IMG/VR virus record: IMGVR_UViG_3300028610_001416
Span: 1-60,001 of that record
DNA length: 60,001 nucleotides
DNA from: a virus
Taxonomy: Duplodnaviria; Caudoviricetes
Reading direction: 5' to 3' (one strand)
Positions 15,660-32,494 of this stretch are shown here, piece after piece. Numbering within the stretch: the stretch's first letter is position 1; the number at the start of each line of letters is the position of its first letter. Below the pieces are notes generated by a model. That model was not told where the DNA came from. It saw only the letters and a program-made list of their open reading frames with translations, and ran no database searches. The position numbers and the translations under genes are program-made.

Positions 15660-15703
15660 TTTTTATTGCAAGGAAGGAAAAGTAGTATTACCAAGGAAGG
15701 TAG

Positions 15704-15737
15704 GAGGGGTCAACAAGGAGGTTGGCCCTTTTTTTAT
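15704..15737 (+). terminator. Intrinsic terminator
   Basis: gggtcaac-aaggag-gttggccc stem followed by a T7 tract. Confidence 0.7.
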
Positions 15738-15777
15738 TGTTCTGAACGGAATGCTGGTTCGACTCCAGCACAGGGCA
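15738..15777 (+). ncRNA. tRNA-like T-loop element 3
   Basis: tgttctg-aacggaat-gctgg-TTCGACT-ccagc-a-cagggca; G-U-tolerant variant of element 2. Confidence 0.7.
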
Positions 15778-15813
15778 TTAGAAATTTAATAAATAAATCG
15801 AAAGGATGGTAAA

Positions 15814-16086: not shown

Positions 16087-17019
16087 ATGGCAAAGATAGA
16101 ATACATATCAAAAAACTTTCGAGGTGATAGTCTAAATTTGATAAAACAGGCAAATACAATCGTTGAAGATTATCAGCAGCAGGGATATGAGTTAACCATT
16201 CGGCAGGTTTATTATCAATTTGTAGCATTGGATTTATTTCCAGAAGAACGCAAGTGGACATGGACAGGAAGGAAATATGTAAAAGACCCCAATGGAACTA
16301 AGAATGCAAATCCTAATTATATATGGCTTATGACTACTGTTAATAAAGGACGGTTAGCAGGTTTAATTGATTGGGATGCTATTGTTGACAGGACAAGAGA
16401 GCCAGTTGAAAATCAACATTGGGACAGCCCTAAGGAAATCATCGAGACTTGTGCTCGTTCTTATAGGGTTGATACCAGGGAGACTCAACCTTATTATATT
16501 GAGGTATGGGTAGAAAAGGATGCCTTAGCAGGAATTTTAGAACGGGTTTGTAGAAGACTTGATGTGTTGAGTTTTGCTTGTCATGGTTATACAAGTTTGT
16601 CAGCCATGTGGGTAGCTGCTCAACGGTTAATAGCGAAAGAAGAAGAGGGTAAGGAAACAATTATTTTACATCTTGGCGACCATGACCCCAGTGGCTTAGA
16701 CATGACGAGAGATATTCAGGACCGACTTGACACATTCTTATCCAATGTTCATGTTAAGCGTATAGCATTAAATTACGACCAAGTCAAAAAATACAGTCCT
16801 CCTCCTAATCCGGTAAAATTAACGGACACTCGGAAAGATAAATACATCAATAAATTTGGAATTGAGAGTTGGGAGTTAGATGCCTTGAAACCAGAAGTCA
16901 TTGATGAATTGATAGCAAGGCATGTCAATGAACTAACCGATGACACTCTATTAGAGGAATTAGATGACCGGCAAGACGAGGAAAGAGAAGTATTAAACAA
17001 GATTGCAAAGAAGTTATAA
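16087..17019 (+). CDS. Topo VI-A/Spo11-like Toprim-domain protein
   Basis: 'LTIRQVYYQ' winged-helix Tyr region; 'VWVEKDAL', 'LHLGDHDPSGLDM', 'WELDAL' Toprim motifs. Confidence 0.75.
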   Translation: MAKIEYISKNFRGDSLNLIKQANTIVEDYQQQGYELTIRQVYYQFVALDLFPEERKWTWTGRKYVKDPNGTKNANPNYIWLMTTVNKGRLAGLIDWDAIVDRTREPVENQHWDSPKEIIETCARSYRVDTRETQPYYIEVWVEKDALAGILERVCRRLDVLSFACHGYTSLSAMWVAAQRLIAKEEEGKETIILHLGDHDPSGLDMTRDIQDRLDTFLSNVHVKRIALNYDQVKKYSPPPNPVKLTDTRKDKYINKFGIESWELDALKPEVIDELIARHVNELTDDTLLEELDDRQDEEREVLNKIAKKL

Positions 17020-17216: not shown

Positions 17217-17238
17217 TAGTTTTCGAAAGGATGGTAAA

Positions 17239-18099
17239 ATGTTAAGGAATCCAAAACAATTAAAATTTATTGCACCAATACATATTCCTAATGGCAAATC
17301 AGGAAAGTATGAAATAAGTCACACAGAACATCCAGTTGGTAGGCCTCTCACAGTTGTCTCACCGCGTACTGCAATATTCACAGGGCAGGAGCCTTTGCGA
17401 GTTTGTTACAATGAACCAGTACCGATTACTGTTCTAAAGGATAAGGATGGTATATGGATGACTGATTCACCAGAAGAACAAGCCTCAGCTCATAGTGCTC
17501 TAACGAAATGTAAAGGACGGGTGTTAGTAGGTGGTTTGGGTTTGGGTTATTTTGTTAAGAAGTTGCAGGAGAAAAATAATGTTAAAAGTGTTGTGGTAAT
17601 TGAAATATCAAACGATGTTATTAGGCTTGTTTGGAATCATCTAAAACTTGATAAGAGATTTTCAATTTTGCGTACGGACATCAAAAAGTTTTTGAAAGGG
17701 TATAAAAGTAATCGGAAGTTTGATTGGGTCTATCTCGATATATGGCGGGGTGATGGTGAATCGGAATTTGTGAATACCGTCTTACCATTGAAAAGATTAG
17801 CTTGTGAAACTGTTTGCAGTAAAGTCGGTCACATACTGTCATGGCAAGAAGATGTGATGCTTAGCCAAATTTATGCAAGTTTAGTATCACGGATGATGAT
17901 TGACTTTGACAAAATTACATCAATGGATGTCAAAGAGTTTGACAAGGTGTTCAGACCAAATAATAAATATGCAATGGCGTACAGAACATTTTGGTTGTTC
18001 ATACGCAAGAATCAAGTGAATGCTGAAGGTGCAAAAGTTAAACTACCTGCCTACATGAGGTGGGTTGGTAACGGAATGAACGGGGACTTTCAAGGATAG
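17239..18099 (+). CDS. SAM-dependent methyltransferase (spermidine-synthase-like fold)
   Basis: 'WMTDSPEE', 'VLVGGLGLGY', 'VVVIEIS', 'FDWVYLDIW'. Confidence 0.7.
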   Translation: MLRNPKQLKFIAPIHIPNGKSGKYEISHTEHPVGRPLTVVSPRTAIFTGQEPLRVCYNEPVPITVLKDKDGIWMTDSPEEQASAHSALTKCKGRVLVGGLGLGYFVKKLQEKNNVKSVVVIEISNDVIRLVWNHLKLDKRFSILRTDIKKFLKGYKSNRKFDWVYLDIWRGDGESEFVNTVLPLKRLACETVCSKVGHILSWQEDVMLSQIYASLVSRMMIDFDKITSMDVKEFDKVFRPNNKYAMAYRTFWLFIRKNQVNAEGAKVKLPAYMRWVGNGMNGDFQG

Positions 18100-18114
18100 A
18101 AAGGATGGTAATAA

Positions 18115-18660
18115 ATGGGGAACGTGCTGCGTAAGGAAATATTGAGTGAGACGTATGAAGATATGAAAAAACTTATTTTTAAGGTTTCTTGGGAAATCAA
18201 AGCAAGCCATGGAGGAGAAATTAACGACTTGATAGGTCAAGCCAACCTGTTATTCATTTACGCACTTGATGAATATGACGAAACTGAATCTGGATTATCC
18301 ACTTGGCTAAGACGATATATTCGTGCTGGACTAAAAAACTATATTAGAAGTGAGCAAAGGCACAAGTCAAGGCATGTTCAAATATCTATTGATAGCATAG
18401 ATGTCAACCTCCAAGTGTTTGATTCGTTCTCTTTGATGGAATTGCTGGATGAAATGGGTGAGGATGCACTGACTATTGTGCAGTTGTTATTTGAAACCCC
18501 AAATGATATTCTCCTAACTGCTCTTAAAAGTGGTAAGCGAATGAACCATATGAAGAGTTATATGAGAAGACGATTGCGAAATAGGTTAAGACAGTGGGGA
18601 TGGACAGCTTGCAGAATTACAAAAACATTTGGGGAGATGAGGAAGGTAATTAGTCATTAG
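18115..18660 (+). CDS. Sigma-factor-like protein (region 2)
   Basis: 'DLIGQANLLFIYALDEYDE...LSTWL...IR..LKNYIRSE' resembles sigma region 2. Confidence 0.6.
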   Translation: MGNVLRKEILSETYEDMKKLIFKVSWEIKASHGGEINDLIGQANLLFIYALDEYDETESGLSTWLRRYIRAGLKNYIRSEQRHKSRHVQISIDSIDVNLQVFDSFSLMELLDEMGEDALTIVQLLFETPNDILLTALKSGKRMNHMKSYMRRRLRNRLRQWGWTACRITKTFGEMRKVISH

Positions 18661-18675
18661 AAAGGATGTACAAGA

Positions 18676-18873
18676 ATGTCAATGCAATTAACAAAGGAAG
18701 AGAAGAAGATTTACTCAGAAGTCATCCATGAGTGGCTTGAAAAGGATATAAATGTTTCACATCTTAGAATTGTTTGGGTATTGCGTACTGAACGCGGATT
18801 GAAACGGCATACAATGAGTGAGATGGCAAGACTTGTTAGGCCGAGGTTAAAACAGCAGAAAAAGAGAGGATGA
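18676..18873 (+). CDS. Hypothetical protein
   Basis: GAAAGGA SD; in operon. Confidence 0.55.
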   Translation: MSMQLTKEEKKIYSEVIHEWLEKDINVSHLRIVWVLRTERGLKRHTMSEMARLVRPRLKQQKKRG

Positions 18874-21299: not shown

Positions 21300-22168
21300 A
21301 ATTCAAAGACATATTATCTCAGCTTGGTATTCCTACAGCACCAGCAGGACATCACCATTGTAGGCCAGGCTGGATACAAATTGACTGCCCCTATTGTGGT
21401 TACAATAGTAATAGGTGGCACTTGGGATATTCCATTGAGGGCAATTACTTAAATTGTTGGCGATGTGGAGGTCATTCTCTTGCCAGTGCTTTGATGACCA
21501 TTACACGTCGGTCTTACTATGAAATTAATAAGCTGTTGACTGGTTTGGAGCCTTCATTAATTAAAAAAGTAAAGCCAACAGGTGAACTTATTATTCCTAA
21601 AAATGTGGGTGGGTTACGAGATACTCATATACGTTATCTTAATCGCAGAGGATTTGATTACAGGACGCTTGAAAGGCTTTGGAGTATTCAAGGTATTGGA
21701 ATTAGTGGTAGGTTGGCTTGGAGAATTTTTATTCCCATCATCTATCATTCCAAAATAGTGAGTTGGACAACCCGTACAATTTCAGATAAGGAATATATAA
21801 CCAGATACATATCAGCGGGTGAGAATGAGGAATCAATGCCTCATCACGAATTGTTATATGGAGAGGATTACGCTCGTCATGCTATAATTATAGAAGAGGG
21901 AATTACCGATGTGTGGATGACTGGACCAGGTGCTGTTTGTACTTTTGGTCTTGGTTATTCAACGAAGCAGCTTGAACGTATGGCAAGCTATCCAACCAGA
22001 GCTGTTTGCTTTGACAATGAGTATGAAGCACAGAAGCGAGCGGAAAGGTTAAGTAATGACTTGTCAGTCTTTCCTGGTGATACTTACAATGTGGTATTAG
22101 ATGCGAAGGATGCTGGGGAAAGCAGTATGGAAGAAATTCAGAAATTAAGGAAGGAGATTTTAGAATGA
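21296..22168 (+). CDS. DNA primase (Zn finger + Toprim)
   Basis: 'DCPYC...NCWRCG'; 'IEEGITDVW', 'VCFDNE', 'KDAGE'. Confidence 0.85.
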   Translation: MKFKDILSQLGIPTAPAGHHHCRPGWIQIDCPYCGYNSNRWHLGYSIEGNYLNCWRCGGHSLASALMTITRRSYYEINKLLTGLEPSLIKKVKPTGELIIPKNVGGLRDTHIRYLNRRGFDYRTLERLWSIQGIGISGRLAWRIFIPIIYHSKIVSWTTRTISDKEYITRYISAGENEESMPHHELLYGEDYARHAIIIEEGITDVWMTGPGAVCTFGLGYSTKQLERMASYPTRAVCFDNEYEAQKRAERLSNDLSVFPGDTYNVVLDAKDAGESSMEEIQKLRKEILE

Positions 22169-22608
22169 ATACGATAAAGGCATTTGTAGGCCAATACCGT
22201 TTTTTAAGTAATTTTTATCCCAGTCCTATCATTTGGAATGATTGGAGATATACAACTGCTGAGCATCTTTTTCAAGCCAGAAAAACAATGACCGAAAAGG
22301 ATAGGGAATTGATACGAAAAATCCCTTCACCAAAACAAGCTAAGTCATTAGGAGGAACTGTTAAACTTAGGCCAGATTGGGAAGAGGTTAAACTTCAAGT
22401 GATGAAGAATGTACTCAAATTAAAATTTACACAAAACCCCGAATTGTTTCAAAAGCTTATTAGCACTGGTTTTATGGAATTGGAGGAAGGGAATTGTTGG
22501 CATGATAATTATTGGGGTATTTGTAAATGCAGAAAATGCAAATATAAGAAAGGACAAAATCATCTTGGACTATTATTAATGGAAGTTAGAAAGGGGGTTT
22601 CAGAATGA
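22165..22608 (+). CDS. NADAR-family protein
   Basis: 'FLSNFYPS', 'TAEHLFQA.K', 'RPDWEEVK..VM...L..KF.QNP.L', 'EGN.WHDNYWG', 'GQNHLG.LLMEVR'. Confidence 0.9.
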   Translation: MNTIKAFVGQYRFLSNFYPSPIIWNDWRYTTAEHLFQARKTMTEKDRELIRKIPSPKQAKSLGGTVKLRPDWEEVKLQVMKNVLKLKFTQNPELFQKLISTGFMELEEGNCWHDNYWGICKCRKCKYKKGQNHLGLLLMEVRKGVSE

Positions 22609-22769
22609 CTTGGGCTGAATTCAAAAAAATGTTAGAACATAGTGGGGTTCTCGATACTGACAATATCAGATTTATTGTTACGGGTGCCAATCCAGAACCG
22701 AGTAAGTTGCATATAGAAAAAATCCACGACTGTTTTTGTGTTTATAATTATGAGGAAGTGAGGTATTAA
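22605..22769 (+). CDS. Small hypothetical protein (not in ORF track)
   Basis: MTWAEFKKMLEHSG...EEVRY*, ATGA overlap with NADAR. Confidence 0.5.
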   Translation: MTWAEFKKMLEHSGVLDTDNIRFIVTGANPEPSKLHIEKIHDCFCVYNYEEVRY

Positions 22770-22770
22770 A

Positions 22771-22944
22771 ATGAGTGCTGAAATTTATTATTACCTCTGC
22801 CACAAGTGTGACAGGGAGGGTGAAGAAGAATCATGTAAACTTACAGTAGATACGAGTCCCGGTATTCCTACAGAATGTCCTTTTGGTTTAGGATTTACTG
22901 CTGAGTGGGAGCAAGTTGACAAGAAAGAATTTAATGGAAATTGA
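22771..22944 (+). CDS. Small Cys-rich protein (not in ORF track)
   Basis: MSAEIYYYLCHKC...CKL...ECPF...; GAGGT SD. Confidence 0.5.
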   Translation: MSAEIYYYLCHKCDREGEEESCKLTVDTSPGIPTECPFGLGFTAEWEQVDKKEFNGN

Positions 22945-22952
22945 AAATCATA

Positions 22953-23082
22953 TGGGAGCGAAACACACTTCTCTATGTCATTGGCCTGCCCATTCCTTTC
23001 ACTACTACATTTCCTGTTGTGAATTTCCGCATTACGCCTTTTGTTGTGCAAACAGGTCAAAAATAGAATTGTTTCGTTCCCA
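22953..23082 (+). ncRNA. Structured RNA, tandem copy 1
   Basis: 13-bp closing stem tgggagcgaaaca/tgtttcgttccca; inner stem ttggcctg/caggtcaa; two inner hairpins. Confidence 0.7.
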
Positions 23083-23088
23083 CCTTTA

Positions 23089-23229
23089 TGGGAGTGGAGT
23101 ACACTTCTCTACATCGCTGGCTTATCATTTCAAATTGCTGTTTCCGTATAGCAAATCTCTCAAAAAGAATCTCGCTCGCTTTCTGAAGTATTCTTTAATA
23201 AGCTGGCAAGTAGAATTACTTCACTCTCA
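23089..23229 (+). ncRNA. Structured RNA, tandem copy 2
   Basis: 13-bp closing stem tgggagtggagta/tacttcactctca; inner stem gctggcttat/ataagctggc; two inner hairpins; followed by ccttttt. Confidence 0.7.
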
Positions 23230-23284
23230 CCTTTTTGATTGTACATGAAATATATCAGTTTAGAAAAAGAAAGGTAGGTACAAA

Positions 23285-23719
23285 ATGAAGAATGTAATAT
23301 TGACAATTTGTTTGGTGCTGGTTTTGTTGACCAGTGGCTGTGGAACTCTTATGCACGGCCCAACGCAAGAAGTTGTTGTAACTTCGAATCCACCTGGAGC
23401 AACTGTAACCAATACTCGGTACACTTGCCACATAAAAACTCCAGGTGTGATGAAGTTAAAAAGAGCTAACTCAACTATCCTAACTGCTCGGCTTTTTGGG
23501 TATGAAGAAGCCAAGCAAAAAATTCAAGTTGGCTTGTCACCATGGTTGTTAGGCAATGTGGCTGGATGGGACACAACATTAAATATAATTTATGTACCTA
23601 TGATACCTGTTACCACTGCTCTGCTCGCTGGTGACATGGTTACAGGCTCGGTAGGAACATTATCACCTGATGCTGTTCACTTTGAGCTTGTGCCAAGAAA
23701 GAAAAGAGTGAGGAGGTAA
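23285..23719 (+). CDS. PEGA-domain lipoprotein
   Basis: Lipobox 'LTSGC'; 'GPTQEVVVTSNPPGATV...KTP..MKLKR...GYEE'. Confidence 0.75.
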   Translation: MKNVILTICLVLVLLTSGCGTLMHGPTQEVVVTSNPPGATVTNTRYTCHIKTPGVMKLKRANSTILTARLFGYEEAKQKIQVGLSPWLLGNVAGWDTTLNIIYVPMIPVTTALLAGDMVTGSVGTLSPDAVHFELVPRKKRVRR

Positions 23720-23899: not shown

Positions 23900-24058
23900 A
23901 GCAGTGTGCACCTTATAAGACCTTAGATGCAGTATTCAAGTTCTAAAGGGTCAAAAATGAATCTTAGTACAAAGTTATAGGGTAGCACAACAAAACCCAA
24001 GAGCAGGGTACGATTCAACCCTATCTTGGGTGTTTACAGCTTAACCTTGCTACAGATT

Positions 24059-24106
24059 GATAATATTTTACAGGTTACCATGATTTGCTGTAATAGTATA
24101 GAGTAG
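24059..24106 (+). promoter_or_regulatory. Phage promoter-like motif B, copy 1
   Basis: Ungapped match to the copies at 25928 and 38568 (GATAAT-N9-GTTAC-N5-TTYGYTRYAATARTATAG). Confidence 0.6.
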
Positions 24107-24513
24107 GTTAGTTTTTCGTTTTAGTAACTGGATGGGACGGATAACTTAATTTTTCGATGAAAGAAAGAGACAACAATAAAAAGCCGTTCCATCCTGTTAT
24201 AATACAATACGATATTTTTTGAATCAGCAAATATGTATAAAACGGATTATTACCATCCTAAACCACTCGCTGCAGAACTTGCTGATTCACAGTAGCGAGT
24301 GGTTTGTTTTTATAGTGAAAGGAGTCACTCATATCAATGCAAAGCAAAACTCAAAAAAAGTTAAAAAAGCAATTCTAAATCCACCAATGGTTTGCCCAAC
24401 GAACTTTTCTCTCTACACTACTCTACTACGAAGTAGTAGTAGTAGAGAAAAACGTAGTTAAAAAAATGTAATAAAAAAGCCCATTTGAAAAAACATATAA
24501 ACTCCATAGATTA

Positions 24514-25927: not shown

Positions 25928-25975
25928 GATAATTTTTTGTGAGTTACGACAGTTCGTTATAATAATATAGAGTAG
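25928..25975 (+). promoter_or_regulatory. Phage promoter-like motif B, copy 2
   Basis: gataattttttgtgagttacgacagttcgttataataatatagagtag, intergenic, contains TATAAT. Confidence 0.65.
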
Positions 25976-25991
25976 TTGAAAGGATGGTAAA

Positions 25992-26888: not shown

Positions 26889-27239
26889 ATGTACACAGTT
26901 ACAAAAAAGATGACGATTGCTGCGGCACATCAATTAAAACTTCCGTATGAATCGAAGTGCAGTGAACAACATGGACATAATTGGATTATTGAAGTGGAAG
27001 TGGTATCTGGAATATTAACAGATTACGGTATGGTTGTAGACTTTGCTCATATAAGTGAAGTAGTGGGAAGTTTAGACCATAAGGATTTGAATGATAGGCT
27101 AACTTTCAACCCCACTGCGGAAAACATTGCAGAGTGGATATTCAAAGAGGTAAAAAGTAGTCTTGATAATCCAAGTGCAGAAGTGACAAAGGTTACTGTA
27201 CAGGAGAGTGAGGGGAATATAGCATGTTTTACCCCGTAA
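26889..27239 (+). CDS. queD: 6-carboxytetrahydropterin synthase QueD
   Basis: 'AAAHQL', 'KCSEQHGHNW', 'GMVVDF', 'LDHKDLN', 'PTAENIA', 'ESEGN'. Confidence 0.92.
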   Translation: MYTVTKKMTIAAAHQLKLPYESKCSEQHGHNWIIEVEVVSGILTDYGMVVDFAHISEVVGSLDHKDLNDRLTFNPTAENIAEWIFKEVKSSLDNPSAEVTKVTVQESEGNIACFTP

Positions 27240-27844
27240 ATGAAATCTTTTATTCGATTCAGGGGGAGGGGTTTCATACTGGAAAGCCTGCTGTCTTTAT
27301 TCGATTGGCTGGTTGTAATTTGGATTGCCCTTGGTGTGATACAAATCATATCACGAAGAGTAAAATGACTCCGATTGAGATAGTAAAGAGGGTGGAGGAG
27401 CTATCAGGAAGGATGTCCTCTACTTTTATTATTTTTACAGGGGGGGAGCCGACGATTCATGCCTTGCTATCTTTATGTGTTTTATTAAGGAAACGAATAG
27501 AAAATACTTATATAGCTATTGAGACGAACGGAACTAATCCAGTTCAAATTGAAGCATTGAAAGAAACGGGCCTATTGGATTGGGTGACAGTGTCTCCAAA
27601 ATACCAAAGCCGTTGCAAATCTAAAGTCAAAAAGAGTATGGTAGAAGCAGATGAAATCAAGGTTGTGTTTGATGGAAAAATAAAGCCGCTTGATTTTGAG
27701 ATGTTGTTGGTAACCAAGTTGGATGCAGGTAAATGTTTTATCCAACCGTGCTCTGGTAAGTTTCGCAATGCTGTTGATTTTGTTTTAAAGAATCCGAAGT
27801 GGAGGTTGAGTGTGCAGATACAGAAGATTATAAATATTAGGTAA
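27224..27844 (+). CDS. queE: 7-carboxy-7-deazaguanine synthase QueE
   Basis: 'EIFYSIQGEG', 'FIRLAGCNLDCPWCDT', 'TGGEP', 'IETNGT', 'VSPK'. Confidence 0.93.
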   Translation: MFYPVNEIFYSIQGEGFHTGKPAVFIRLAGCNLDCPWCDTNHITKSKMTPIEIVKRVEELSGRMSSTFIIFTGGEPTIHALLSLCVLLRKRIENTYIAIETNGTNPVQIEALKETGLLDWVTVSPKYQSRCKSKVKKSMVEADEIKVVFDGKIKPLDFEMLLVTKLDAGKCFIQPCSGKFRNAVDFVLKNPKWRLSVQIQKIINIR

Positions 27845-27854
27845 GGGAGTATCG

Positions 27855-28745
27855 ATGGAAAAGGTAGATTTAAGTTGGAATGATATTGGAATAAGAGCAC
27901 AGGCAATAGCGGATAAGATAGAGGTTAATGCAGTAAATATGAATCCTCCATTGAGATTATACGGTATTCCACGAGGAGGGGTTTATGCTGCTCAAGCTGT
28001 TTTGTCCTATATAGAGAAGGAGTCAGAGCTTGTGGAAGAGCCAGATGATAACTGTATATTCATTGATGATATTATTGATACTGGAAAGACGAGGGATGAT
28101 TTTATAGAGGCATATGAATGTCCTTTTCTTGCTCTTGTGGATAAGCGGGGAGCGGATAGGAATGTGAAGGGTGTTTGGGTTTCATTTCCTTGGGAGCGAA
28201 TGACACATGATGAAGGGCCTGTAGAGAATGTCAAAAGGCTCTTGCAGTATATTGGGGAAGACCCGGAGCGAGATGGATTGAAAGAAACTCCTCAGCGAGT
28301 TATCGATTCTTATAAGAAATTGTTTGGTGGTTACAAGCAGAAGATGGAACTAAAGGTTTTTGAGGACCCTTGCAATCAAATGGTGTTATTAAAAAATATT
28401 GAGTTTTATTCAACTTGTGAGCATCACATGCTCCCCTTCTGCGGGAAGGCTCATATAGCATATATTCCAAATGGAAAGATAATCGGGATATCTAAGTTGG
28501 TTCGTGTTCTTGAGATTTTTTCCAGGCGACTTCAAATACAAGAACGACTTTGTCATCAGGTGACGGAGTCATTGGAAAGAATGTTAAAACCTTCGGGAAC
28601 GGCTTGTGTTTTAGAAGCCCAGCATTTATGTATGCTTTGTCGAGGGGTAGAGAAACAAAGTTCAATCATGGTTACTTCCTCTTTGACAGGGGTGTTTGAA
28701 AGTAACCTGTCAACAAGAAATGAATTTATGAGGTTAATAAAATGA
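27855..28745 (+). CDS. folE: Purine phosphoribosyltransferase-GTP cyclohydrolase I fusion
   Basis: N-terminus 'GIPRGG...IDDIIDTGKT...WVSFPWE' (Gpt-like); C-terminus 'GLKETPQRV', 'CEHHMLPF', 'GISKL', 'LQIQER', 'HLCMLCRG'. Confidence 0.9.
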   Translation: MEKVDLSWNDIGIRAQAIADKIEVNAVNMNPPLRLYGIPRGGVYAAQAVLSYIEKESELVEEPDDNCIFIDDIIDTGKTRDDFIEAYECPFLALVDKRGADRNVKGVWVSFPWERMTHDEGPVENVKRLLQYIGEDPERDGLKETPQRVIDSYKKLFGGYKQKMELKVFEDPCNQMVLLKNIEFYSTCEHHMLPFCGKAHIAYIPNGKIIGISKLVRVLEIFSRRLQIQERLCHQVTESLERMLKPSGTACVLEAQHLCMLCRGVEKQSSIMVTSSLTGVFESNLSTRNEFMRLIK

Positions 28746-30435: not shown

Positions 30436-31614
30436 ATGCTTTATTATGTACCATTAGAATCTTATGAAGAAAGATATACTATGCAGTGGTCTGCTCCTAT
30501 TACAGGTTGGTTGGAACGGAATTGGATTAAGGCTGATATAAGATATGCACGAATAGATAGCACAGAAAACAGAAAAGGAGTCACTCCAATTACAACTGGG
30601 GGGGTTTTGGATACCTTAAAACGAAATAGGCATTGTTGTGACCAGGTAAACCAACTTATGGCTTTGGCTTCGACGGGAGTTGTTACAAGTAAAGATATTA
30701 TTTACTTCGACGATTTTTGGCATTTTAATATGCAGGCTTTGGCTTATCATTTTCATCAATTGGGAATAACTCCTAAGATGTTTGCCTTTTGTCATGCACA
30801 GAGTGTGGATGAATTTGATTTTACTTATCCTATGCGACATTGGATGAGGAATTTTGAAAAAGGTATAGGTAAAATCTTGGACGGTATATTTGTCAACTGT
30901 GATGTGCTTAGGAATCTTTTACAGATGGCAGAGATAGGTGTAGGTAAAATTCATGTCACGGGTCATGTCTTTTGTGAGGAAGAGGTTGAGGAGCGAATGC
31001 CAAAGGCTGGTGGTGGTAAGAGTAGGGCAAAGTTTGAGAGAAAGAATCATATTTTGTTTACAAGCAGGTGGGACACGGAAAAGAATCCTGATTTCTTTTT
31101 AAGGGTGGCAGAGCAATTGTTAAGGGTTAGGAAGGATTTGAAATTCATTATTTGCACTTCTGCAAAACGAATAGAATCGAATGATGTGGCTTTGGAGAGA
31201 TTATTGCTTAAAAAGGTGGCTGAATATCCTGGTAATATAATACTAAAGGAGGGGTTGACAAAGGAGGAATATTATGAGGAATTGTGTAAGGCTAAGATAC
31301 AGTTAAATACAGCAGACCAAGACTTTACTTCTATAGCACTATTGGAGGCAAGTGTGGCTGGTTGTTATCCGTTGTATCCTAATTTCCGTTCCTTTCCACA
31401 AGCCTTTAAGCATATGAAGGGTTACATGTACCATCACCAAGATTTGGAAGATTGTGTTTGTCAGATAAATTGGATTTTAGCACGTGAAAAAAATTGGTCT
31501 GGAGATGATATAAAGCATAGAGCTTGGATTCATAAAAGACATAATACATCTTGGGCGAGGATGATTAATATAATGTTTGGGAAGAAATTAATAGAAGTGG
31601 TTGACTATGAATAG
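30436..31614 (+). CDS. GT-B glycosyltransferase
   Basis: 'FTSRWDTEKNPDFF', 'YYEELCKAK...TA.QD...IALLEA..AGC.PL.PN.RSF'. Confidence 0.8.
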   Translation: MLYYVPLESYEERYTMQWSAPITGWLERNWIKADIRYARIDSTENRKGVTPITTGGVLDTLKRNRHCCDQVNQLMALASTGVVTSKDIIYFDDFWHFNMQALAYHFHQLGITPKMFAFCHAQSVDEFDFTYPMRHWMRNFEKGIGKILDGIFVNCDVLRNLLQMAEIGVGKIHVTGHVFCEEEVEERMPKAGGGKSRAKFERKNHILFTSRWDTEKNPDFFLRVAEQLLRVRKDLKFIICTSAKRIESNDVALERLLLKKVAEYPGNIILKEGLTKEEYYEELCKAKIQLNTADQDFTSIALLEASVAGCYPLYPNFRSFPQAFKHMKGYMYHHQDLEDCVCQINWILAREKNWSGDDIKHRAWIHKRHNTSWARMINIMFGKKLIEVVDYE

Positions 31615-32494
31615 AGAGCAAGATATATCTCCTTTGATTATGGATTCAGGAGCAACCTTTTTGTATAATAAATATATCAAAAAGGATACGAAGGGTGCAC
31701 CTGGAACAGCCATAAAAGATAAGCGAAAATTGGATTTCTCATTTTATGAGACAGATACGTTTTTGGATTTTCGAGAAGCCTATATAAGGTTTGTTAAAAG
31801 GTATGATAGGTATTTGTTTGCTTATGTTAATATGGATTGGATAAACAATGCAGAGGGTTCTTATAATTCTCTAAAGTATATGGAGAGGAAAGGATGCCAT
31901 CCTCTTCCTGTGTTCCATTTGGGAAATGATTCGAAGTGGTTGAAAAGGTATGTGGATGAGGGGTACGAATTTATTTGTATAGGAGGAATAACACCTAACC
32001 CATATGGGATAGTTAAGCCTCAATTGGATAAGATATGGTCTGATATCTTGACAGATTCTGTTGGCAGACCGGTGGTTAAGGTTCATGGTTTAGCTTGTAC
32101 ATCCTACAGATTGCTTAAAAGGTATCCTTGGTATAGTGTGGACTCTGCTTCTTGGACGAAGTTAGGGGCTTGGGGTGGTATTTACGTTCCACGCAAAGTT
32201 GGTGGAAGGTTTAGTTTTGATAAGCAGCCTTTTGGAATTCAAGTGTCTGAAAAATCTTCAAAGACGGGTGAAAGGGATAGACATTTATGTACGATGCCAG
32301 CAGCGGAAGGGGCTCATATAAAAGAATGGCTTCAACTTATAGGTGTTCCATTGGGGGGTAAAAAAGAGTTAGGGGTTACAAATGATTATGAAAGTAGGAT
32401 GAGAGCAAATCTTTTCTTTTTCCAAGCCATGTGTAAATCTTTACCTGATTGGCCTTGGAATTTTACAAAACCTATTAGGAAAGGATTTTTTTAA
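31601..32494 (+). CDS. dpdA: DpdA/TGT-like guanine transglycosylase
   Basis: 'MDSGA', 'NMDWI', 'PVFH.G', 'ICIGG', 'KVHGLACT', 'PWYSVDSASW', within a Que cluster. Confidence 0.65.
   Translation: MTMNREQDISPLIMDSGATFLYNKYIKKDTKGAPGTAIKDKRKLDFSFYETDTFLDFREAYIRFVKRYDRYLFAYVNMDWINNAEGSYNSLKYMERKGCHPLPVFHLGNDSKWLKRYVDEGYEFICIGGITPNPYGIVKPQLDKIWSDILTDSVGRPVVKVHGLACTSYRLLKRYPWYSVDSASWTKLGAWGGIYVPRKVGGRFSFDKQPFGIQVSEKSSKTGERDRHLCTMPAAEGAHIKEWLQLIGVPLGGKKELGVTNDYESRMRANLFFFQAMCKSLPDWPWNFTKPIRKGFF

Follow-up and report, generated by a model that had tools for sequence, protein, structure and literature searches.

A candidate family of mobile structured RNA elements in uncultured subsurface phages

The window analyzed here is a virus record of 60,001 bases (IMG/VR record IMGVR_UViG_3300028610_001416) with direct terminal repeats, in which all plausible genes lie on the + strand. 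Between an open reading frame (ORF) of 57 amino acids (22771-22944) and a lipoprotein gene (23285-23719) it holds two head-to-tail units, at 22953-23088 and 23089-23235 (+), which are tandem paralogous copies of one structured element. The pair is located between the primase and DnaB genes, following the primase gene, a NADAR gene, and two small ORFs. A copy of the consensus element measures 130 to 150 nt, and the family has no database entry. A preliminary description of this DNA, made from the letters and their ORFs, had proposed a tandem pair of structured RNAs here, and both units were recovered with the stems, motifs, and boundaries that it had given.

Both units share one plan, consisting of a 13-bp helix P1, an asymmetric internal loop (CACUUC opposite AU), a 5-bp P2, an 8- to 10-bp P3, and a three-way junction with two hairpins (P4 and P5), followed by a U-containing tail. 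Measured from P1 to P1, unit 1 spans 130 nt and unit 2 141 nt, with a spacing of 6 nt. In unit 1, the 5' strand of P1, UGGGAGCGAAACA (22953-22965), pairs with 23070-23082, and its UGGGA is invariant in all eight family members described below. The 5' side of the internal loop, CACUUC (22966-22971), and the 5' strand of P2, UCUAU, form a block at 22966-22976 that, together with the preceding A, reads ACACUUCUCUA and is likewise invariant (8/8). P2 pairs 22972-22976 with 23063-23067; its 3' strand AUAGA and the AU of the internal loop (23063-23069) contain UAGAAU, again invariant in 8/8 sequences. P3 has 8 bp (22981-22988 with 23053-23060), and the junction strand J3/4 (22989-22997) carries a CAYUYC motif within the word CCAUUCCUUUCA, which can pair, with one bulge, with a recurrent ribosome-binding site (RBS) word of the window. 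The two hairpins (22998-23023 and 23029-23049) and the tail CCUUUA (23083-23088) complete the unit.

The counterparts in unit 2, which begins 6 nt past P1 of unit 1, are P1 (23089-23101 with 23217-23229), the block of CACUUC and the P2 5' strand (23102-23112), P2 (23108-23112 with 23210-23214), the UAGAAU block (23210-23216), a P3 of 10 bp (23116-23125 with 23198-23207), J3/4 (23126-23134), two hairpins that are longer than those of unit 1 (23135-23154 and 23164-23196), and the tail CCUUUU(U). The consensus of the family thus has a P1 of 12 to 15 bp with a conserved base, UGGGAG/CUCCCA, an invariant internal loop of ACACUUC opposite AU, a P2 of UCUAY/RUAGA, a P3 of 8 to 10 bp, a second CAYUYC motif on the 5' strand of the junction, two variable hairpins, and a C(C)UUU(U) tail. 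The GGGAG/CUCCC base of P1 precedes 3 to 5 U in every unit and encloses a "loop" of more than 100 nt. Two details of the preliminary description hold in part: C/U-rich words, which it had placed on both hairpin loops, are found on the first hairpin loop of each unit and not on the second, and the inner stems are present in both units, offset by one position in the sequence alignment.

Folding of the units yielded minimum free energies (MFE) of -40.4 kcal/mol for unit 1 and -42.3 kcal/mol for unit 2, with z scores of -5.77 and -5.69, respectively, and none of 200 shuffles was equally stable. Folds of the minus strand were weaker (z of -1.16 for unit 1 and -2.84 for unit 2). With DNA parameters the same fold of the + strand was still favored (z of -2.1 to -3.6; minus strand, -1.2 and -0.3), and the folds with RNA parameters were much stronger. 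A covariance model made from unit 1 alone recovered unit 2 at 57.8 bits (E of 4e-12) and nothing besides it in the 60 kb at E<=10. Among the 18 pairs of P1 and P2, 4 differ between the units on both sides, 3 differ by a change to or from G-U, and none is broken, in agreement with the compensatory and G-U differences that had been noted between the copies. The pyrimidine richness ascribed to the + strand was confirmed as well: the interval 22953-23235 is the most pyrimidine-rich 283 nt of the window, with a purine fraction of 0.406 versus a mean of 0.571, and none of 1,195 sliding 283-nt windows had a lower value. The unpaired parts of the units are nearly purine-free. In six of the eight sequences, the unpaired segments share no mutually complementary run of at least 4 nt, and no conserved intramolecular pseudoknot or kissing loop was found among the eight.

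Homologues were identified by scanning JGI metagenome contigs with an exact-motif pattern that demanded UGGGAG, CACUUCUCUA, and UAGAAU. This gave five loci (L011 to L015), all confirmed by the covariance model at 65 to 120 bits. L013 holds a tandem pair with the unit order of the window, L014 is a reverse-complement duplicate of L013, and L011, L012, and L015 have a single unit each. A sixth locus, L016, was found via synteny on the 37-kb viral record G006, whose ParB-like gene is 66% identical to that of L011; a single unit (52.8 bits) lies immediately downstream of this gene. With model R3, units 1 and 2 of the window scored 92.3 and 110.4 bits, and their homologues at L013:2177-2306 and L013:2307-2456 are 85% and 83% identical to them. 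The set comprises eight distinct sequences on six contigs, i.e., the window pair and six homologues on five other contigs, which come from two unrelated groups of uncultured subsurface phages; L011, L012, L015, and G006 (L016) constitute group B. The occurrence of homologues with compensatory changes in other phages, which the preliminary description had put forward as a check, was thus confirmed. The eight sequences fall into three types with 39 to 56% identity between types, and each folds individually into P1, loop, P2, P3, junction, and two hairpins, with z scores of -5.4 to -7.9.

Further searches yielded no additional members. Neither blastn of the region and the surrounding 7 kb against GenBank phages nor blastn of one group-B unit against GenBank phages and PLSDB plasmids gave a match, and looser motif scans of IMG/VR returned chance matches alone. 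Pattern scans of one genome per prokaryotic species (GTDB) returned 0 and then 5 stretches, none of which was confirmed; these scans required exact motifs and may have missed divergent copies. Loci L019 to L026, L028 to L032, and L034 to L036 were chance pattern matches, ruled out by covariance models and folding. Among them, a 111-nt pattern match common to the eight viral contigs L019 to L026 corresponds in L019 (9300-9435) to a long, very stable hairpin (z of -5.9), which the models rejected and which is unrelated to the element family. The record of L017, a relative found through its topoisomerase gene, had no model match, the flanking lipoprotein and NADAR proteins, used as queries against viral contigs, revealed no closer relatives, and tblastn of the group-B ParB-like protein found distant phage relatives alone (29 to 37% identity).

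A search of sequencing runs listed no RNA run with the stretch and one DNA run that contains it, probably from the source sample. Contigs of this run, placed on window positions 22951-23235, include variant units of lower depth, a variation at the DNA level only. One contig is L013-like, and one, with the reading CAUUUCUCUA, has A for G at two of the G-U positions in unit-2 P1. A U at the third letter of CACUUC was seen in one contig variant. At one joint the end of unit 2 leads back into unit 1, indicating a different unit order or a longer array, and in one contig a unit-1-like copy is followed by unrelated sequence.

Covariation was counted on a model-based alignment of the eight sequences. 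Standard pairs filled 81.8% of the pair cells, versus 34 to 41% when the partners were slid by 1 to 3 columns. Changes on both sides occurred at 16 of 43 pairs, a number reached by 1 of 500 shuffles, and the covariation score of 0.277 was reached by none of them (0.188 ± 0.019; 0/500). Most of the signal came from P1, where 7 of 13 pairs had changed on both sides and 95% of the cells were paired; in P2, 2 of 6 pairs had changed on both sides. Covariation thus supports P1 and P2. Counts for P3 are too low, owing to a one-column offset of the unit-1 type, and P4 and P5 are found in every sequence and are too variable to align. Compensatory changes across homologues, as expected of a structured RNA family, are therefore present, here in eight sequences and an alignment fitted to the model. 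About 32 paired cells are G-U; since the opposite strand would have A-C mismatches at these places, they mark the + strand as the functional one, which had also been named as the RNA strand beforehand and whose z scores (about -5.7, against -1.16 and -2.84 for the minus strand) point the same way.

Conservation concentrates on a few blocks. Invariant in all eight sequences are the 5' UGGGA, ACACUUCUCUA, GGC in P3, UAGAAU, and the 3' UC-CAC-UUU, and CAYUYC is present on the junction strand of all eight. By our reading of the alignment, the loop of the second hairpin is UGUUGU in six of the eight. Substitutions between the window and L013 are rarer at paired (13/174) than at unpaired (20/109) positions.

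The interval also contains an ORF of 110 amino acids (22916-23248), and the element might be its coding sequence: the frame is open across both units, and one or two frames are open in the homologues, too. Such open frames would be expected because purines are scarce. Neither Pfam nor PHROG gave a match to the ORF. The 33 substitutions that separate the units of the window from those of L013 fall 9/11/13 on codon positions 1/2/3, without third-position bias, and indels of 4, 2, 1, 1, and 1 nt break the frame; the close relatives L011 and L012 are also separated by a 1-nt indel. Because the two units are spaced 136 nt apart, they are read in different frames, and in the translations the frame of the invariant motif differs among the window, L012, and L016, so that three frames are used. 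Judged from these patterns of change, the element is not translated and the ORF is not conserved as a protein, which agrees with the noncoding interpretation of the preliminary description. Of the outcomes that this description had named as telling against it, neither an Rfam hit nor an ORF kept with codon-type variation was observed. We consider a coding role extremely improbable.

The genomic surroundings of the element vary. Nine IMG/VR loci (L002 to L010) encode a primase 46 to 63% identical to that of the window and keep the order SNF2 helicase-primase-DnaB, with 1.0 to 1.8 kb of other genes between primase and DnaB and with neither the NADAR nor the lipoprotein gene in this interval. In these loci, model R2 with filters off gave 32 matches, all at E of 1.3 to 9.2 and at most 10.5 bits, and model R3 gave none. 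The element was also absent from all five whole records of primase relatives, one of which is a complete genome of 67.9 kb. Because it is missing from the nine loci and the five records, the element is accessory and lies outside the conserved replication backbone. The replication-region context emphasized in the preliminary description is therefore not a conserved trait; in relatives, the element follows a topoisomerase-like or a ParB-like gene.

L013 derives from a relative of the window phage, and the RNA pair itself is far better conserved between the two than nearby genes are. It is 86% identical over 290 nt, and the topoisomerase-like gene of L013 (phrog_6247) and its relative at 16087-17019 in the window share about 55 to 57% identity at the protein and 65% at the DNA level. 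In L013 the pair directly follows this gene, and in the window it comes 6 kb later. Homology starts at the UA before UGGGA and stops in the U tract. Downstream of the pair, each of the two phages has a lipoprotein gene, and the start regions of these genes are similar; in the window this is the PEGA-like gene (phrog_6823) at 23285-23719 (+), and positions 23245-23329 match L013:2678-2766 at 77% over about 90 nt. In tblastx and blastn comparisons, group B had no sequence in common with the window besides the element and an A-rich stretch of about 37 nt upstream. This stretch, TTGAC...ATTGAAAATC, lies at 22916-22952 (+) before unit 1; the blastn alignments of L011, L012, and L015 span 22916-22977 with 73 to 74% identity over 73 nt, and it extends over the ends of ORFs that are unrelated and lie in different frames. 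Its role may be that of a promoter or a 5' leader, and its membership in the element is uncertain. No further copy of it occurs in the window, ATTGAAAATC recurs at chance level, the arrangement TTGAC...GAAAAT is not enriched in the window (6 versus 3.4 expected), and consensus promoter counts in the window are at chance level.

On all six distinct contigs the unit is encoded on the gene strand, inside gene arrays. Downstream of it are the lipoprotein gene in the window, an ORF for a 70-amino-acid membrane protein and then the lipoprotein gene in L013, a 66-amino-acid ORF in L012 and L015, and a 152-amino-acid ORF in L016, with no common family among these genes. The next start codon lies 22 to 61 nt after P1 overall and 22 to 24 nt after it in group B, where the RBS directly follows the tail. 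Terminator-like hairpins are located one or two genes downstream (24277-24300 in the window and L016:4487-4510). Comparison of ten neighboring ORFs with PADLOC gave no match, neither to a defense-system protein nor to an endoribonuclease. Taking these comparisons together, the element behaves as a strongly constrained, horizontally mobile, portable accessory module in early and DNA-metabolism gene clusters.

Other observations concern the flanks of the homologues. Directly before the RNA pair of L013, at L013:2099-2176, lies a hairpin with a 14-bp stem, an inner hairpin, and the tail ACCUUUUA (z of -4.45), possibly a third unit in truncated form, or else a terminator with the common tail. Two genes downstream of the unit in L015, a GIY-YIG endonuclease-like ORF (L015:386-724, minus strand) looks like a homing-endonuclease insertion; L012 has a different ORF of 281 amino acids at this place.

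Several further features of the window were recorded. At 15702-15733 lies a strong terminator-like hairpin of 13 pairs, followed within the region 15702-15775 by a hairpin GCTGG-TTCGACT-CCAGC at about 15753-15769; the latter resembles a tRNA T-arm and may be a 3' fragment of a tRNA, e.g., part of an attachment site, and ARAGORN calls no tRNA in the window. A nearly identical RBS cassette, GAAAGGATGGTAA(A/T)A, located at 15797-15813, 17222-17238, 18098-18114, and 25975-25991, precedes the ATG of several early genes, with variants before the starts at 18676, 21042, 23285, 32494, 46914, and 47141. Upstream of the DnaB-like gene, a gap of 600 nt (23900-24513) without a convincing ORF contains an 11-bp inverted repeat (24130-24140 with 24184-24194, one G-T), the terminator-like hairpin at 24277-24300, and a hairpin of CTAC/GTAG repeats at about 24410-24450, and may be an origin or a regulatory region. 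The phage genes in 18115-18660, 22165-22608, 27224-28745, and 31601-32494 encode a small sigma-70 region-2 protein, a NADAR-domain protein, and QueE-like, GTP cyclohydrolase, and queuine tRNA-ribosyltransferase-like proteins; the last three suggest 7-deazaguanine modification of the DNA.

Comparison with known RNA families gave no assignment, in line with the earlier impression of an unrecognized family. Rfam 15 (4227 models) had no match at gathering score in the whole window. At E<=10, the region 22700-23500 gave four weak matches, all far below gathering, e.g., SNORD73 on the minus strand (21.8 versus 42) and L20_leader (19.1 versus 58.7), and the five weak matches in L011, L012, L013, L015, and L018 did not overlap a unit. 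ARAGORN found no tRNA or tmRNA in the window. A full-text literature search for the invariant 10-mer gave one unrelated paper, and a search by topic gave no description of the motif among the titles and abstracts listed. Orphan structured RNA motifs of phages and metagenomes, of the kind collected in Rfam, have been found by comparative genomics (PMC2864571 is one such survey). The element resembles motifs of this kind in its conserved fold with covariation, its conserved loop and junction nucleotides, its phage-borne location, and its unassigned function. Unlike the orphan motifs in Rfam, the element scores below gathering for all 4227 models, and we would class it as a new family within the orphan structured RNAs of phages.

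In layout, the nearest analogue is the pair rnaD/rnaC of phage T4 (species 2 and 1; AF158101), tandem small stable RNAs of 119 and 139 nt that lie 6 nt apart and to which AF158101 assigns no function. The two pairs differ in that they share no similarity of sequence or fold, with different MFE folds. Model R3 with filters off found nothing at L033:2909-3172 in T4, and its best match elsewhere in this locus reached 8.3 bits. The T4 pair furthermore ends a tRNA cluster, whereas the window has no tRNA gene.

The pRNA of phi29-type phages has a long closing helix with loop interruptions and a three-way junction bearing two hairpins, and it assembles into an intermolecular ring via complementary loops. 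It resembles the element as a phage RNA of similar size with an interrupted closing helix, a three-way junction, and two hairpins. However, Rfam pRNA models do not match the element, and its loops are not mutually complementary (six of eight sequences without runs of at least 4 nt). The phage of the window also has the usual large terminase and portal of tailed phages, and the element lies in the early region and is absent from relatives. The put antitermination RNAs of HK022 and the intercistronic RNase III sites of T7 are signals of one or two hairpins and about 60 to 70 nt. Like the element, they are structured, sense-strand, intergenic components of early transcripts with more than one paralogous copy per genome; set against general descriptions of these sites, the element differs in having five helices and three conserved single-stranded motifs. 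Type III antitoxin (ToxI-like) arrays are made up of short repeats in tandem, with the gene of an endoribonuclease toxin immediately downstream. They share with the element the arrangement of tandem direct repeats upstream of small genes, but the units of the element have 130 to 150 nt, are single in group B, and have no endoribonuclease neighbor.

We regard it as highly probable that the element is a real conserved structured element and, with somewhat less assurance, as likely that it acts as RNA and not as single-stranded DNA (ssDNA). The best explanation, which we hold tentatively, is a mobile structured RNA module encoded on the sense strand, probably a small, stable RNA whose invariant pyrimidine motifs are offered to a protein or to purine-rich RNA; we lean only cautiously toward a binder acting in trans over an element acting in cis. 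The element would be transcribed with or within early transcripts, and a stable small RNA with P1 and the U tract as its boundaries would then accumulate. Its stacked P1-P2-P3 helix would display nearly purine-free single-stranded motifs, which would be free for a partner because the unpaired segments cannot pair with each other. These motifs may bind a protein or a purine-rich RNA, and the role may be that of a decoy, a sponge, or a regulator in early infection. An autonomous small RNA is favored over a gene-specific leader because the neighbors and the distance to the start codon (22 to 61 nt) vary. The complement of the invariant motif, GAAGTG, is not enriched in the window, with 28 occurrences versus 26.7 ± 4.5 in shuffles.

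Several points weigh against this explanation. The homologue set is small, with eight distinct sequences from six contigs. Unit B of L013, L011, L012, and L015, as well as L014, which repeats L013, were ascertained via the motif pattern, and the invariance of the motifs is partly circular because these sequences were found with a pattern requiring UGGGAG, CACUUCUCUA, and UAGAAU; independent support for it comes from the two window units, unit A of L013, and L016. Counting relied on an alignment that had been fitted to the model and in which P3 of the unit-1 type is out of register, and covariation of P4 and P5 is weak, with 50 to 77% of the cells paired. The fold persists under DNA parameters, scanning for consensus promoters and terminators detects none at the units on the + strand, and neither a conserved partner protein in the neighborhood nor a target was found. 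Finally, the start codon that follows P1 after 22 to 24 nt in group B suits cotranscription or a role in cis at least as well as a free small RNA.

A role in cis, as part of an early polycistronic mRNA, is a rival that we rate as unlikely. The element would then act on its own transcript, as a leader, a riboswitch, an attenuator, a put-like antitermination RNA, or a signal for processing or stability similar to the intercistronic RNase III sites of early T7 mRNA. Processing, stability, and antitermination stay in consideration because of the tight RBS packing in group B, the lack of a recognizable promoter or terminator, and the terminator-like sites downstream (24277-24300; L016:4487-4510), and the element is always in sense within gene arrays, with a G+C-rich base of P1 followed by 3 to 5 U. 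Aptamers and riboswitches typically combine conserved nucleotides in junctions and internal loops with variable hairpins and tandem copies, and the conserved loops, variable hairpins, and tandem copies of the element resemble this general picture. However, a riboswitch or gene-specific leader would be expected before one gene family, and the downstream genes are unrelated and start at varying distances from P1 (22 to 61 nt). A conserved alternative pairing or expression platform was not found, folds of the P1 3' strand with the RBS had z scores of -0.8 to +0.7, and no Rfam riboswitch or leader matched. A special case of action in trans, a repressor RNA directed against Shine-Dalgarno sites of early genes of the GAAAGGAUGG type, had been suggested for the first copy. 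The complementarity exists: CCAUUCCUUUCA at 22990-23001 pairs, with one bulge, with the RBS word GAAAGGAUGG, which occurs exactly before at least four start codons (15814, 17239, 18115, and 25992) and in variants before several more; unit A of L013 has CUCCUU at the same place, a weaker version, and the unpaired parts are nearly purine-free. The repressor role found little support, as the complement is confined to unit 1 and, more weakly, unit A of L013. It is absent from unit 2, unit B of L013, and the four group-B sequences, where the conserved word is CAYUYC followed by A/U-rich letters, and GAAGTG is not enriched. We consider this function improbable.

The remaining explanations concern DNA, selfish mobility, and catalysis. 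As the DNA-parameter fold is still favored (z of -2.1 to -3.6 on the + strand versus -1.2 and -0.3 on the minus strand), a small probability stays with a strand-specific, folded ssDNA site for replication initiation, primosome loading, or recombination, and the position between primase and DnaB in the window and the topoisomerase-like or ParB-like neighbors elsewhere would suit such a site. But G-T pairs are frequent in the helices, as DNA the fold is much less stable and has much weaker z scores, there is no conserved location with respect to replication genes, and absence from nine SNF2-primase-DnaB loci and five of five whole records indicates that this is not a core replication site. The fold could also be a by-product of terminal inverted repeats in a selfish or recombination-prone repeat resembling bacterial miniature inverted-repeat transposable elements (MITEs), with which the element shares such repeats and mobility: the arms of P1 form 13-bp terminal inverted repeats at the unit ends, the element occupies different sites in related and unrelated phages with homology that stops sharply at its ends, unit number and order vary among metagenome contigs, and the pair of L013 comes after a truncated hairpin with the common tail. 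This, too, has little probability in our judgment. Unlike bacterial MITEs, the element is low in copy number (two adjacent copies in the 60-kb window and one in the 37-kb G006), the exact-motif scans of prokaryotic species genomes found 0 true matches and hence no host copies, and no flanking duplication was seen in the flanks inspected. Moreover, P2 to P5 and the unpaired motifs are kept across types of 39 to 56% identity with compensatory changes, which inverted termini alone leave unexplained. The element could also be a self-cleaving ribozyme of a new class, by which transcripts of several units would be cut into monomers. In favor of this, the units stand head to tail with a 6-nt gap, and conservation is centered on the internal loop and junction of a multihelix fold. 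Several small ribozyme classes were found in phage-type contexts, and the element shares the phage context. Yet there was no match to a known ribozyme model, even at E<=10, no conserved tertiary pairing between loops, and only single units in group B, and we view this as very unlikely.

To our knowledge, few structured RNAs encoded by phages have been described and fewer are understood, and we know of no experimental system that would as yet suggest such functions in deep-subsurface phages. A selectable, portable RNA function in early infection is indicated because the pair is 86% identical where proteins share about 55%, because it is duplicated in tandem, and because it is present in two otherwise unrelated groups of phages. 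The element might even represent a new class of functional RNA cassette that moves between unrelated phages, either as a decoy or sponge, whose rigid scaffold of helices would expose two CAYUYC motifs and a UGUUGU loop and so capture, early in infection, a purine-rich RNA or a host protein, e.g., a defense or RNA-binding factor, or as a new ribozyme or aptamer, although this broader possibility is rather doubtful. With a covariance model and eight sequences, the element is a defined candidate for an RNA-based device of host takeover, counter-defense, or regulation in deep-subsurface phages.

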